A stretch of 64,000 nt of DNA. Origin: a virus (Duplodnaviria; Heunggongvirae; Uroviricota; Caudoviricetes). The position numbers and the translations under genes were made by a program. This document shows, piece after piece, positions 24,549 to 26,375 of this stretch (position 1 is its first letter; each line of letters opens with the position of its first letter). Where the stretch lies: the IMG/VR virus record IMGVR_UViG_3300021431_000077, positions 39,062 through 103,061 of that record; one strand, written 5' to 3'. The notes beneath the pieces are model-generated. The model saw nothing but the letters and a program-made list of their open reading frames with translations. It did no database searches and was not told the origin of the DNA.

Positions 24549-25229
24549 ATGTCTTTTATCAAAAACAAATTCCGTGCGCTGTACATGGCAGCGTTTATCA
24601 TCTTCACCGTCATCTTCACCATCATGATGCCTGACGGCCATACGGCGATGTGGTTCGCAATGCTCACCGCTCTGTTGGGAACGGTTTCAACCGTGATGTT
24701 CGCTCAGAAGAACATCTGGGCTTACGTACCCAGTTTCGTGTTCAACTTCATGTACATGTACATCTGTTGGGAAAGCCGTCTGTGGCTTGAATTTGGCGAA
24801 TACATCTTCTACAACGTGACTATGGTTTATGGTGTCTACGCATGGCGCAAGCAGCTCGAAAAGGACAAGACTCACGTCATTCCGAAGCGTCTCTCGCCTA
24901 AGGCATGGGTGCTTTCTATTCTTGCCACCATCGTCCTTACGGTCGGCTTCGGTACGTTCGATAAGTTTGTTCTTGACGGTGCAGTTCCGTACATGGATGC
25001 GTTGAGCATCAGCTTCACTGTTATCGCCCAGCTTCTTATCATCACTTGCTATCGTGAACAGTGGTTCTTCTGGTTCGTGCTTGATGGAATTTCTATCGTA
25101 ACGTTCGCACTTATTGGCGAATGGGCAATGGTTGCCATGTATGTCTGCTGGTTCATCAACACCATCTACGGATGGATTGAATGGTCTCATAACGAGAAGA
25201 AACTCGAAACGGACACCGTGGAGGCTTAA
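24549..25229 (+). CDS. pnuC: nicotinamide riboside transporter PnuC
   Basis: multi-TM; blocks VYGVYAWRKQ and EQWFFWFVLDGISIVTFALIGEWAMV...WFINTIYGWIEW match E. coli PnuC IYGWYAWSRQ / ENWLLWVIINVISV. Confidence 0.8.
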   Translation: MSFIKNKFRALYMAAFIIFTVIFTIMMPDGHTAMWFAMLTALLGTVSTVMFAQKNIWAYVPSFVFNFMYMYICWESRLWLEFGEYIFYNVTMVYGVYAWRKQLEKDKTHVIPKRLSPKAWVLSILATIVLTVGFGTFDKFVLDGAVPYMDALSISFTVIAQLLIITCYREQWFFWFVLDGISIVTFALIGEWAMVAMYVCWFINTIYGWIEWSHNEKKLETDTVEA

Positions 25230-26375
25230 ATGTTGGACGACGTGATTAACCTATGCGGTGGCCCTCGTGAATACGGGGTTGTCCTCGGGTCTTTCAGCCC
25301 GATGCACACAGGTCATCTTGACCTCGTAATGGCAGCGAAGAAGCTCTGCTCTAAGGGCGCTATCATTGCCGTTTGCGGTCTTGATGGTGACCGTGGCACG
25401 AGAATTGGCCTCCCTATTGAACGCCGCTATGAAATCATCAAGAAGATGTTTGAAGGCGACCCGCTTGTTCACGTCGTCATGATGAAGGATAACGATATCG
25501 GCATCGCAGGTTACATGGACAAGTGGGCTGAATGGATTGAAGCCCTCAGCTACAAGCTCGCTGAAATCGTGTACGGCAATGCTGATGTCAGCAAGCGAAA
25601 GTGTGAGAAATTGCTTCAACGAACGACTATCTTTACTGGCGAACCGTCGTACAGAAAGGCAATCTTGTCGGCGTTCACGAAAGGCCCTAATGTGTATCTG
25701 TTGTCAAGGGAGTTAAACACGATTTCTGCGACAAAGATACGCAAGGAACCGATGAAGTATTGGGACGAAATCATTGGCCATGAGTTCAAGGCTCAGTTTG
25801 CCAAGCGTGTCCTGATTATCGGTACAGCATCGGAAGGCAAGTCTACTCTCACGAAAGACCTTGCCCGATACTTCGATGCGGGTTGCACCGAGGAGTATGG
25901 ACATGTCTACCTTGCCGCTACCAACGGTAAGGAACCGATGCCAGACGATACCAAGCTGACCTACGATGACTACATCCGTTTCCTTGACGAACAGTATCGT
26001 GTCAACTCGGCAAGTTGGCACAAGGTAAACATCTGTGACAGTGACGCAATGACTACGCTCATGTATGCCAAATACTATTCGATGGATGACAGATATGCCG
26101 TCACCGAAGAAGATTACAAGCGTATTGAAGCTCATGCGAAGTTCCTGAAGTACGATGCAATCTTTGTTCTTCCCCCGAAGAAGGACAGTTGGGTGCAGGA
26201 CGGCAGCAGGGATTGTCTCACCAACAGTTTCGAAGACCGTAAGAAGCAGTATCAGGTATTGATGAACATTATTGGACAGCACTACTGCACCGAAGATATT
26301 GTCTACCTGAACGGCACTTATCATGAGAACTTCATGAGGGCCAGAGACAAAATCAAGAGTTTGCTTTCTGACTAA
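25230..26375 (+). CDS. nadR: NadR-like bifunctional NMN adenylyltransferase / ribosylnicotinamide kinase (no HTH domain)
   Basis: nucleotidyltransferase motif GSFSPMHTGH; P-loop IIGTASEGKSTL. Confidence 0.8.
   Translation: MLDDVINLCGGPREYGVVLGSFSPMHTGHLDLVMAAKKLCSKGAIIAVCGLDGDRGTRIGLPIERRYEIIKKMFEGDPLVHVVMMKDNDIGIAGYMDKWAEWIEALSYKLAEIVYGNADVSKRKCEKLLQRTTIFTGEPSYRKAILSAFTKGPNVYLLSRELNTISATKIRKEPMKYWDEIIGHEFKAQFAKRVLIIGTASEGKSTLTKDLARYFDAGCTEEYGHVYLAATNGKEPMPDDTKLTYDDYIRFLDEQYRVNSASWHKVNICDSDAMTTLMYAKYYSMDDRYAVTEEDYKRIEAHAKFLKYDAIFVLPPKKDSWVQDGSRDCLTNSFEDRKKQYQVLMNIIGQHYCTEDIVYLNGTYHENFMRARDKIKSLLSD

Follow-up and report, generated by a model that had tools for sequence, protein, structure and literature searches.

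What a large phage of the rumen gains from carrying both a transporter and an enzyme for nicotinamide riboside (NR) is the question raised by two adjacent genes, pnuC and a nadR-like gene, in a stretch of 64,000 nucleotides from the IMG/VR virus record IMGVR_UViG_3300021431_000077 (Caudoviricetes). This whole stretch is hereafter called the window, and positions refer to it. An initial annotation, made from the sequence without database searches, had read the two genes as an NAD+ salvage pair directed against NAD-depleting immunity. On the evidence assembled below, the pair is probably a NARP3-type NR salvage module of a huge ruminant-gut phage, most likely keeping NAD+ available during infection. 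The features of the locus are collected in Table 1.

Table 1. Features of the pnuC-nadR locus and its immediate downstream neighbours
Feature	Positions	Strand	Description
Promoter-like TTGCCA-17-TATATT	24480..24508	+	10/12 matches, sigma-70-like; in the 73-nt gap before pnuC
pnuC, Pnu-family transporter	24549..25229	+	226 aa; predicted NR importer; extra N-terminal TM plus 7-TM core
Shine-Dalgarno GGAGG	25218..25222	+	7 nt before the nadR ATG, within the pnuC 3' end
nadR-like, HTH-less bifunctional enzyme	25230..26375	+	381 aa; NMN adenylyltransferase (~14-175) and ribosylnicotinamide kinase (~190-381)
tRNA-Leu (anticodon TAA)	26387..26462	+	11 nt past the nadR stop; neighbour, outside the module
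rtcB, RNA 3'-phosphate ligase family	26481..27674	+	PF01139 2.3e-64; neighbour, not conserved with the pair

Profile and structure searches bear out both identities and both open reading frames proposed by the initial annotation, with E-values far past chance. PnuC exceeds the cut-offs of Pfam PF04973 (7.6e-39, 133.9 bits for a cut-off of 27.3) and of the NCBIfam equivalog model TIGR01528 (99.1 bits, cut-off 42.45), matches PHROG 1880 (3.4e-37), and aligns to the N. mucosa PnuC chain 4QTN_A (residues 8-215 with 18-231; 2.9e-15). The blocks said to match E. coli PnuC do exist, as residues 125-219 match the E. coli-type model NF011926, but the score of 46 bits does not reach its cut-off of 335. 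The ATG at 24549 is backed as the start codon by the N-terminus MSFIK(N/S)KFR that relatives share; a longer start, the TTG at 24453, would overlap the upstream gene. A hydropathy scan at a threshold of 1.4, which misses two to three aromatic-rich helices of the core, reports about five hydrophobic segments, one of them near the N-terminus (residues 7-34). The ligand-binding motif of Pnu transporters, WxxW(x)3D/N, is located in TM6 (PMC5749112), where the window PnuC has W172/W175/D179 (YREQ-W172-FF-W175-FVL-D179). The TIGR01528 match and the tight linkage to NadR both point to NR as the predicted substrate; since some Pnu transporters carry thiamine or riboflavin (PMC5749112), the specificity for NR rests mainly on that linkage. 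Thiamine specificity was also considered from the last motif residue and rejected, Asp being the majority form beside nadR (44 of 54 nadR-linked PnuCs, the other 10 having Asn).

The NadR protein matches PF01467 (3.2e-06) and PF13521 (2.7e-19) in Pfam, PHROG 3462 (3.5e-59), and the PDB chains 6GYE (4.6e-40) and 9X6F (1.3e-20, residues 15-341), as well as 8X7F and 1LW7. Its scores with TIGR01526 (1.5e-51, 175.6 bits) and NF005988 (116.8 bits) stay under the respective cut-offs of 341.15, that of an equivalog model, and 201. NadR is thus a divergent member of its family, falling short in score and not in domain content. The motifs (H/T)xGH and ISxTxxR define the nucleotidyltransferase superfamily fold, including H. 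influenzae NadR, and both are present here, within GSFSPMHTGH (residues 20-29, HTGH at 26-29), as the initial annotation had seen, and as ISATKIR (165-171). The kinase P-loop that it had likewise recognized is the Walker A motif GTASEGKST (198-206), which is accompanied by DSD (270-272) and a lid motif DGSR (324-327); these align to Walker A (187-195), Walker B (254-260), and the lid (304-318) of L. lactis NadR. Among 16 NadR relatives, down to 36% identity, H26, G28, H29, S166, T168, R171, G198-K204, D270, D272, D324, and R327 are invariant. The lack of an N-terminal HTH is confirmed as well: about 13 residues precede the adenylyltransferase domain, and the NF005988 match begins at model position 64. 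An HTH is a feature of the trifunctional enterobacterial type only, and the protein thus belongs to the HTH-less subtype; the HTH is also missing from L. lactis NadR and from Bas30_86, the NadR-like protein of phage Bas30. An AlphaFold2 model (pLDDT 87.2, pTM 0.80) has NadR structures as its best eight PDB matches in Foldseek (6GYF, 6GZO, 6GYE, 1LW7, and 8X7F), over both domains and with TM scores of 0.68-0.79, the top ones being L. lactis NadR 6GYF/6GZO/6GYE (0.72-0.79). Both genes are under purifying selection, with dN/dS values of 0.11-0.17 for nadR and 0.04-0.10 for pnuC.

The two genes are adjacent and co-directional, as initially described, and they are tightly coupled: the pnuC stop codon TAA (25227-25229) directly abuts the nadR ATG on the same strand, an arrangement that suggests translational coupling. 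The promoter-like site in front of pnuC is suggestive by position only, as the region holds 10 such sites for 8.6 +/- 3.4 in shuffled sequences, i.e., no excess; it is a possible promoter of the pair's own. In a search for an NAD+ riboswitch or a 'pnuC motif' RNA before pnuC, a whole-window Rfam scan at the gathering threshold returned two tRNAs and nothing else, and a permissive scan of positions 24300-24700 returned chance-level matches only.

Downstream, rtcB is possibly co-transcribed with the pair, and the initial annotation had taken the position next to RtcB as an argument for a defence-related role. This argument is a weak one. RtcB does recur within ~1 kb of nadR-pnuC in three further loci (L030, L093, and L131, the last two of which look like one lineage). 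It adjoins the pair, however, only in L001-L005, L016, and L089-L091, where NadR is at least 90% identical; it is absent beside the pair in L006-L011, and insertions part nadR from rtcB in L004, L005, and L016. The tRNA-Leu is found solely in L089 and L090 among the tRNA-scanned loci, both members of the clade whose NadR shares 90% identity or more. RtcB and the tRNA-Leu were therefore rejected as core parts of the module, and their link to the pair, limited to the closest relatives, does little to support a defence role. We regard it as improbable that, in this lineage of huge phages from the rumen, a single 'damage repair' island extends over 24549-29772, transcribed as a unit and comprising pnuC-nadR, tRNA-Leu(TAA), rtcB, and a gene for a PTH2-like hydrolase. 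If it did, it would act against two routes of abortive infection together, the depletion of NAD+ and the cleavage of tRNA or of the translation apparatus, and the recurrence of RtcB at L030 and L093/L131 would then reflect a functional coupling not described before.

The pair itself persists where its surroundings do not. In relatives at 69%, 63%, and 44% NadR identity, pnuC and nadR are kept together amid differing, unrelated flanks, on viral contigs of 175-475 kb: the two genes move together. In each of the 44 IMG/VR loci that contain both a NadR relative and PnuC, they are on the same strand, and in 40 of these the two genes are adjacent, making transporter and enzyme an almost obligatory unit. 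NadR-like genes occur in 725 deposited phage records and PnuC-like genes in 349. Searched by blastn in 50,697 phage records, the pair gave no nucleotide match, so that the relationships to deposited phages are visible only at the protein level.

The domain, motif, and structure matches uphold the chemistry proposed initially, from NR through NMN to NAD+, and we predict this biochemistry with high confidence. PnuC, in the host inner membrane, would let external NR diffuse in. The kinase domain of NadR, which is presumed active in the host, would phosphorylate NR to NMN and thereby trap it in the cell, and the adenylyltransferase domain would convert NMN and ATP into NAD+. With an enzyme that lacks a DNA-binding domain and with genes under phage control, the pathway would probably escape host NadR-mediated transcriptional control, while drawing on an external precursor. 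The likeliest benefit would be that NAD+ is kept available during infection, above all when SIR2-, TIR- or SEFIR-type effectors destroy it.

Other readings of the pair differ in what it serves or in what it carries. It may be a general auxiliary metabolic module and not a counter-defence one, feeding the NAD+ demand of a 420-kb phage (NAD+-dependent ligase, ADP-ribosyltransferases, redox reactions) or offsetting weak NAD+ synthesis by the host. NAD+ synthesis genes are common in gut jumbo phages, where they have been read as an independent NAD+ supply for the phage, and pnuC is present in 68 of 174 'NAD-jumbo' phages, in which it can cluster with nadR and nadM (PMC11662467). The same nadR-pnuC adjacency is found in many ordinary bacterial genome records, e.g., Lactococcus fujiensis L048 and isolate D16-76 L029, and the very wide occurrence of both genes in deposited phages fits this explanation too. 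Nevertheless, we consider it unlikely as an alternative: scans of about 45 of the ~110 window ORFs against Pfam, PHROGs or PADLOC found no further NAD+-making or NAD+-consuming gene, the sole direct experiments on such a cassette, that of Bas30, report a defence-dependent benefit, and the metabolic and counter-defence roles can in any case hold together. It is very unlikely that the module acts on a compound other than NR (thiamine, riboflavin, nicotinic acid riboside or a deoxynucleoside), trapped by the kinase domain. The transporter motif does end in Asp, like that of the thiamine carrier PnuT, and not in Asn, and the NR contacts assigned in Bas30_87, the PnuC-like protein of Bas30, are not conserved in the window PnuC. 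However, PnuC passes the equivalog model, Asp prevails in transporters beside NadR, and NadR has the full set of adenylyltransferase motifs and a model that best fits NR- and NAD-bound NadR structures; moreover, an NMN adenylyltransferase coupled to a carrier of thiamine or riboflavin would be metabolically senseless.

Least credible of all is that the region belongs to a bacterial chromosome or another mobile element and that nadR and pnuC simply form a cellular operon of the ordinary kind. The ORF scans identified no virion or replication hallmark gene in the 64-kb window, and a 93%-identical copy is found on a contig that was binned with a Bacteroidaceae MAG (L016). Mis-binning of large phage contigs into MAGs is, however, a common artefact, and the window matches viral contigs in IMG/VR, 419 and 422 kb long (UViG_3300021400_000141 and 3300028914_000001), that carry near-identical loci; among deposited sequences, moreover, both proteins are most closely related to those of the Lak megaphages. 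The ~110 ORFs of the window are short, dense, and mostly in one direction, with few database matches, and are accompanied by isolated tRNAs and by R2K ATP-grasp, RtcB, and ClpX-like genes, which are typical of large phages. The carrier is a huge (~420 kb) phage of the ruminant gut (rumen). Hints on its host are conflicting: the Bacteroidaceae-binned relative and the nearest deposited phages (Lak), which infect Prevotella, stand against a high Shine-Dalgarno use in the window (59% of 74 genes vs a background of 19%), which is atypical for Bacteroidota. A phage-borne type I-Fv-like CRISPR-Cas locus, unrelated to the pair, is located 3.6 kb upstream of it.

As an NR salvage module, the pair can be compared with several known systems. 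The best deposited-phage matches of both proteins are in Prevotella Lak megaphages (NadR 32%, PnuC 37%), which are likewise huge gut phages (e.g., MK250021 Lak-B2, 540-552 kb) with an Asp-type transporter and adjacent genes. In Lak, however, nadR comes first and overlaps pnuC by 14 nt, whereas pnuC precedes nadR in the clade of the window; the Lak records are unannotated, and blastn detected no nucleotide similarity. The best solved match of NadR, in sequence and structure, is the HTH-less enzyme of L. lactis (6GYE, 6GYF, 6GZO; PMC7221760), from which the window protein differs by a clade-specific insertion of ~20 residues at ~100-130. The cellular pair, which serves housekeeping salvage, also has nadR before pnuC, the opposite of the order in the window. 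It is conceivable, though improbable, that the reversed order and the Asp-type transporter are marks of a functionally distinct subtype. Among phage pathways, NARP2 (NAMPT and NMNAT, e.g., NadV/NatV of Vibrio phage KVP40) and NARP1 (Adps and Namat) also rebuild NAD+ during infection, each with two enzymes, and NARP2 ends with NMN adenylylation, as the window pair would. NARP2, however, starts from nicotinamide and PRPP in the cell and NARP1 from ADP-ribose and nicotinamide; unlike the window pair, neither has a transporter or uses an external precursor, and the NMNAT fold is the sole protein family that the window pair has in common with them.

The closest published counterpart is NARP3, described in August 2026 and formed by Bas30_86 (NadR-like) and Bas30_87 (PnuC-like) of the T5-like phage Bas30 (PMC13464706). 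Its carriers include Escherichia phage TrudiRoth and T5-like Epseptimavirus phages, it is reported to be largely restricted to phages of Enterobacteriaceae, and structures are available (PDB 9X6H, 9X6F; PMC13464706). The Bas30 cassette converts NR to NMN and then NAD+, and rescues both the NAD+ pool and plaque formation from Sir2-HerA and DSR1; Bas30_87 binds NR, and binding-site mutants lose rescue (PMC13464706). The benefit is defence-dependent, with little cost or effect otherwise, as assayed with T7 and lambda and the cassette expressed from a plasmid, not with the native phage (PMC13464706). A third route beside NARP1 and NARP2 had been suggested already in 2024 in the NARP1/2 preprint (10.1101/2024.02.11.579819). 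The counter-defence route distinct from NARP1 and NARP2 that the initial annotation envisaged is thus real for a homologous cassette; the idea is not novel, having been suggested in 2024 and demonstrated in 2026, and for the window pair this role is suggested by homology to a tested cassette about 27-28% identical.

With NARP3, the window pair shares two adjacent co-directional phage genes, encoding a PnuC-family protein and a NadR that has RNK and NMNAT domains but no HTH, an identical predicted chemistry, and tRNA genes in the accessory region, as seen in phage S133. By tblastn, NadR and PnuC are 28% and 27% identical to S133 orf77 and orf78 (~27-28% to Bas30_86/87), orf77 standing for Bas30_86, to which it is 100% identical over 308 aligned residues of the 9X6F chain. 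The gene order is opposite, pnuC-nadR in the window vs nadR-pnuC in Bas30 and S133, the transporter motif ends in Asp vs Asn in Bas30_87 and N. mucosa PnuC, and the carrier is a ~420-kb rumen phage vs ~110-kb enterobacterial siphoviruses. Of the residues mutated in Bas30_86, four are conserved in the window NadR (F11 as F22, F110 as F135, I141 as I165, and D275 as D309), three are changed conservatively (E80 to D87, R167 to K192, and K168 to R193), and the others are replaced (K10 by S21, S37 by C49, P84 by A93, G89 by K98, D115 by S140, K163 by A188, and E230 by R257). The docking-derived NR contacts N45, Q94, and N180 of Bas30_87 correspond to G44, a gap, and D179 in the window PnuC. Solved cellular homologues differ at such sites too, N. 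mucosa PnuC having Gly at the N45 site and L. lactis NadR Thr at the K10 site, so that those Bas30 residues are not family-defining. The window pair is a real but distant copy of NARP3, and it opens no new question, as mechanism and concept are already in print. It does extend NARP3-type pairs from largely Enterobacteriaceae phages to huge phages of ruminant and primate guts, including the Lak megaphages, supplies diverged versions of the enzyme and the transporter that can be tested, and supports the idea that NAD+ supply is a pressure point common to phage infections.

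The transporter gene pnuC and the nadR-like gene that follows it were recovered on the + strand, exactly at the positions assigned by the initial annotation. A longer pnuC frame, starting at a TTG at 24453, overlaps the upstream gene, and the ATG at 24549 was taken as the start since the N-terminus of related proteins, MSFIK(N/S)KFR, begins there. The pnuC stop codon TAA (25227-25229) directly abuts the nadR ATG, which has a GGAGG 7 nt 5' of it, a layout suggesting that the two genes are translationally coupled. The 73-nt gap 5' of pnuC contains a TTGCCA-17-TATATT site (24480-24508), of a type whose regional frequency is not above that of shuffled sequences.

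In the NadR-like protein, Pfam finds a cytidylyltransferase-like domain at the N-terminus, followed by an AAA_28 P-loop domain at the C-terminus. Profile searches, proposed as a check of its identity, returned PHROG 3462 (3.5e-59) and the NadR NMN adenylyltransferase model TIGR01526 (1.5e-51), the latter with 175.6 bits and thus under its equivalog cut-off of 341. Solved structures matching the protein are the L. lactis NadR (6GYE, 4.6e-40), 9X6F (1.3e-20), the E. coli NadR (8X7F), and the H. influenzae NadR (1LW7). Its motifs line up with the Walker A, Walker B, and lid segments as delimited in L. lactis NadR, and residues H26, G28, H29, S166, T168, R171, G198-K204, D270, D272, D324, and R327 are invariant in 16 relatives, down to 36% identity. 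The best eight PDB matches of its AlphaFold2 model (pLDDT 87.2, pTM 0.80) are all NadR proteins, with TM scores of 0.68-0.79 and both domains covered. The bifunctional identity put forward initially is therefore upheld by the NMN adenylyltransferase (NMNAT) and P-loop domains, the motifs, and the structural matches. So is the claim that the protein is devoid of an N-terminal HTH: none was found, the NMNAT domain begins after only ~13 residues, and the E. coli-type NadR model is matched from its position 64 onwards.

The Pfam NMN_transporter profile (7.6e-39) and the NCBIfam equivalog TIGR01528 (99.1 bits, above its cut-off of 42.45) agree on the PnuC family assignment, and the protein also matches PHROG 1880, 'PnuC-like'. 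The reported match with E. coli PnuC amounts to partial similarity, the E. coli-type model NF011926 reaching 46 bits where its cut-off is 335. Residues 8-215 align with the N. mucosa PnuC (4QTN, 2.9e-15), the only solved Pnu transporter, and the ligand-binding motif of the Pnu family, WxxW(x)3D/N (PMC5749112), is present as W172/W175/D179. The final motif residue is an Asp, as in the thiamine carrier PnuT; N. mucosa PnuC and Bas30_87, the PnuC-like protein of the phage NARP3 cassette, have an Asn there. Of 54 transporter genes taken from the fetched loci, almost all adjoin a NadR gene; 44 encode Asp at this position and 10 Asn. Asp is thus the usual form in NadR-linked transporters, and was not taken to argue against nicotinamide riboside (NR) as substrate.

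The pnuC-then-nadR order, abutting or overlapping, is kept in unrelated flanks at 69%, 63%, and 44% NadR identity. Among the fetched loci, the pair is flanked by genes for a NUMOD4 protein and a U49 peptidase in L007, by a TnpB-like gene in L008, and by split DNA polymerase III alpha genes and a radical SAM gene in L010. The nadR-then-pnuC order occurs in more distant relatives (NadR identity ≤38%), among them the Lak megaphages, the T5-like phages, another 40 IMG/VR loci, and the majority of MAG and genome loci. Wherever both genes were detected in IMG/VR (44 loci), they share a strand, and in 40 of these loci they are adjacent. The dN/dS values, 0.11-0.17 for nadR and 0.04-0.10 for pnuC, indicate purifying selection on both, PnuC being the better conserved partner (82-85% identity where NadR retains 63-69%). 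On gut or rumen MAG contigs and on IMG/VR contigs (L017-L059 and L093-L131), a PnuC gene lies immediately 3' of nearly every HTH-less NadR found, and it may be that some of the MAG contigs taken for 'bacterial' are in fact from phages.

Metagenomic contigs up to 0.2-1 Mb in length encode an identical NadR protein, and IMG/VR viral contigs (419 and 422 kb) carry relatives with 90-92% identity. The window is densely packed with ~110 short ORFs, most of them running in the same direction and few matching anything in databases, and has two isolated tRNAs; no hallmark virion gene was found within its 64 kb. The carrier of the pair is accepted to be a huge phage. Hints on its host point in different directions: of 74 window genes, 59% have an upstream Shine-Dalgarno core (background 19%), whereas a 93% NadR relative lies on a sheep-reticulum contig in a Bacteroidaceae bin (L016) and Prevotella is the host of the nearest deposited phages.

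The best-supported reading of the pair is the classical PnuC/NadR salvage route, each step of which is drawn from family membership and motif conservation. NR would enter by facilitated diffusion via PnuC, the ribosylnicotinamide kinase domain would trap it by phosphorylation to NMN, and the NMNAT domain would adenylylate NMN to NAD+. We consider this biochemical assignment very probable. The initial annotation further proposed a counter-defence role against NAD+-depleting effectors, to which, by homology to Bas30_86 (NadR-like) and Bas30_87, we give slightly better than even chances in this phage. Co-expression of Bas30_86/87 in Sir2-HerA E. coli restored NAD+ and NADH and increased T7 and lambda plaquing 10^3 to 10^4-fold; DSR1 was likewise countered, and rescue needed both genes and NR binding, these assays being, according to their authors, of an expressed cassette and not of the native phage (PMC13464706). 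The main rival explanation, a general NAD+ supply for a very large phage, has been argued for gut jumbo phages (PMC11662467) and is compatible with counter-defence. Taken as a single statement, salvage chemistry together with counter-defence appears likely.

The position next to RtcB holds as an adjacency but not as a conserved linkage. The rtcB and tRNA-Leu(TAA) genes lie 3' of nadR only in relatives with at least 90% NadR identity, and even there some genomes carry 0.5-1.3 kb insertions separating nadR from rtcB; this restricted, interrupted occurrence argues against conservation. Of the loci scanned, L089 and L090, the closest relatives, are the only ones with this tRNA-Leu. RtcB homologues (45-51% identical) lie within ~1 kb of nadR-pnuC in L030, L093, and L131, the last two seemingly of one lineage. 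In T5-like phages the NAD cassette is likewise located among tRNA genes (phage genome record). Repair-type and NAD genes could gather in accessory 'repair' regions, or a recurrent 'repair island'.

A compact phage-borne type I-Fv-like CRISPR-Cas locus (15421-20901), conserved in the fetched loci L001 and L002, ends 3.6 kb upstream of pnuC. Its 319-aa ORF may be Cas5fv, and neither cas1 nor cas2 was seen in the scanned ORFs flanking it on both sides. The ClpX-like unfoldase is conserved in close relatives (82-96% identity). The QueC-like and radical SAM ORFs may serve 7-deazaguanine synthesis for DNA or tRNA modification. The DUF1848 protein also matches PADLOC 'RTasDUF1848' of DRT defence systems (9.7e-12), and no adjoining reverse transcriptase was identified among the scanned ORFs.

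Features of the window, with the NadR motifs in protein numbering
Feature	Position	Strand	Remark
UDP-galactopyranose mutase	7371-8633
QueC-like ORF then radical SAM ORF	8995-10943		PF06508 2.4e-14; 3.6e-08
TPM-domain + LemA pair	12795-14205
Cas3fv-like HD-helicase	15421-17709		PADLOC 1.7e-51
Cas7fv-like	17809-18807		3.5e-10
319-aa ORF	18810-19769		candidate Cas5fv
Cas6-like ORF	19773-20327		7.3e-07
CRISPR array	20324-20901		10 repeats, period 61, core GTTTCCCGTGTGTGCGGGAATTGAAA
ClpX-like AAA+ unfoldase	20944-22191	-	N-terminal C4 zinc finger; between CRISPR array and pair
pnuC	24549-25229	+	226 aa
nadR-like	25230-26375	+	381 aa
HTGH	NadR residues 26-29
ISATKIR	NadR residues 165-171
Walker A GTASEGKST	NadR residues 198-206
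DSD	NadR residues 270-272
Lid DGSR	NadR residues 324-327
tRNA-Leu(TAA)	26387-26462		11 nt past nadR
rtcB	26481-27674		RNA ligase; PF01139 2.3e-64
PTH2-like peptidyl-tRNA hydrolase	29191-29772		3.7e-07; just downstream of pair
SPFH/Band-7 protein	31511-32458	-
DUF1848 protein	33045-34040	-	2.1e-22
ATP-cone protein	36560-37162	-
tRNA-Arg(CCG)	52694-52769		isolated tRNA gene
R2K-clade ATP-grasp protein	56096-56821

The suggestion of a route analogous to, yet distinct from, NARP1 and NARP2 was right in substance, but this route has already been published as NARP3. The NARP1/2 preprint reported that NadR genes of phages are usually found in one operon with PnuC, a possible further NAD+ reconstitution pathway (10.1101/2024.02.11.579819). 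In gut jumbo phages, a survey from 2024 found pnuC in 68 of the 174 NAD-gene-bearing genomes, as well as a pnuC-nadR-nadM cluster (PMC11662467). The name NARP3 was given to the pair in an August 2026 paper, with biochemistry, infection assays, and the structures 9X6H and 9X6F (PMC13464706). Deposited phage genomes hold 725 NadR-like and 349 PnuC-like records, many so annotated. Given these and the IMG/VR relatives, the view that the NARP3 operon belongs largely to phages of Enterobacteriaceae (PMC13464706) is too narrow. The window pair is only 27-28% identical to the tested Bas30 system and 32-37% identical to the Lak megaphage proteins, its closest deposited relatives. Its pnuC-before-nadR order is confined to its own clade and reversed relative to the others, and its transporter, unlike Bas30_87, is of the Asp type. 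Several functionally important residues of Bas30_86/87 are substituted as well, but we do not treat them as defining since several also differ in solved cellular homologues. The observation is thus confirmed and its interpretation supported, while the concept is not novel: the pair is a divergent case of the NARP3 type.
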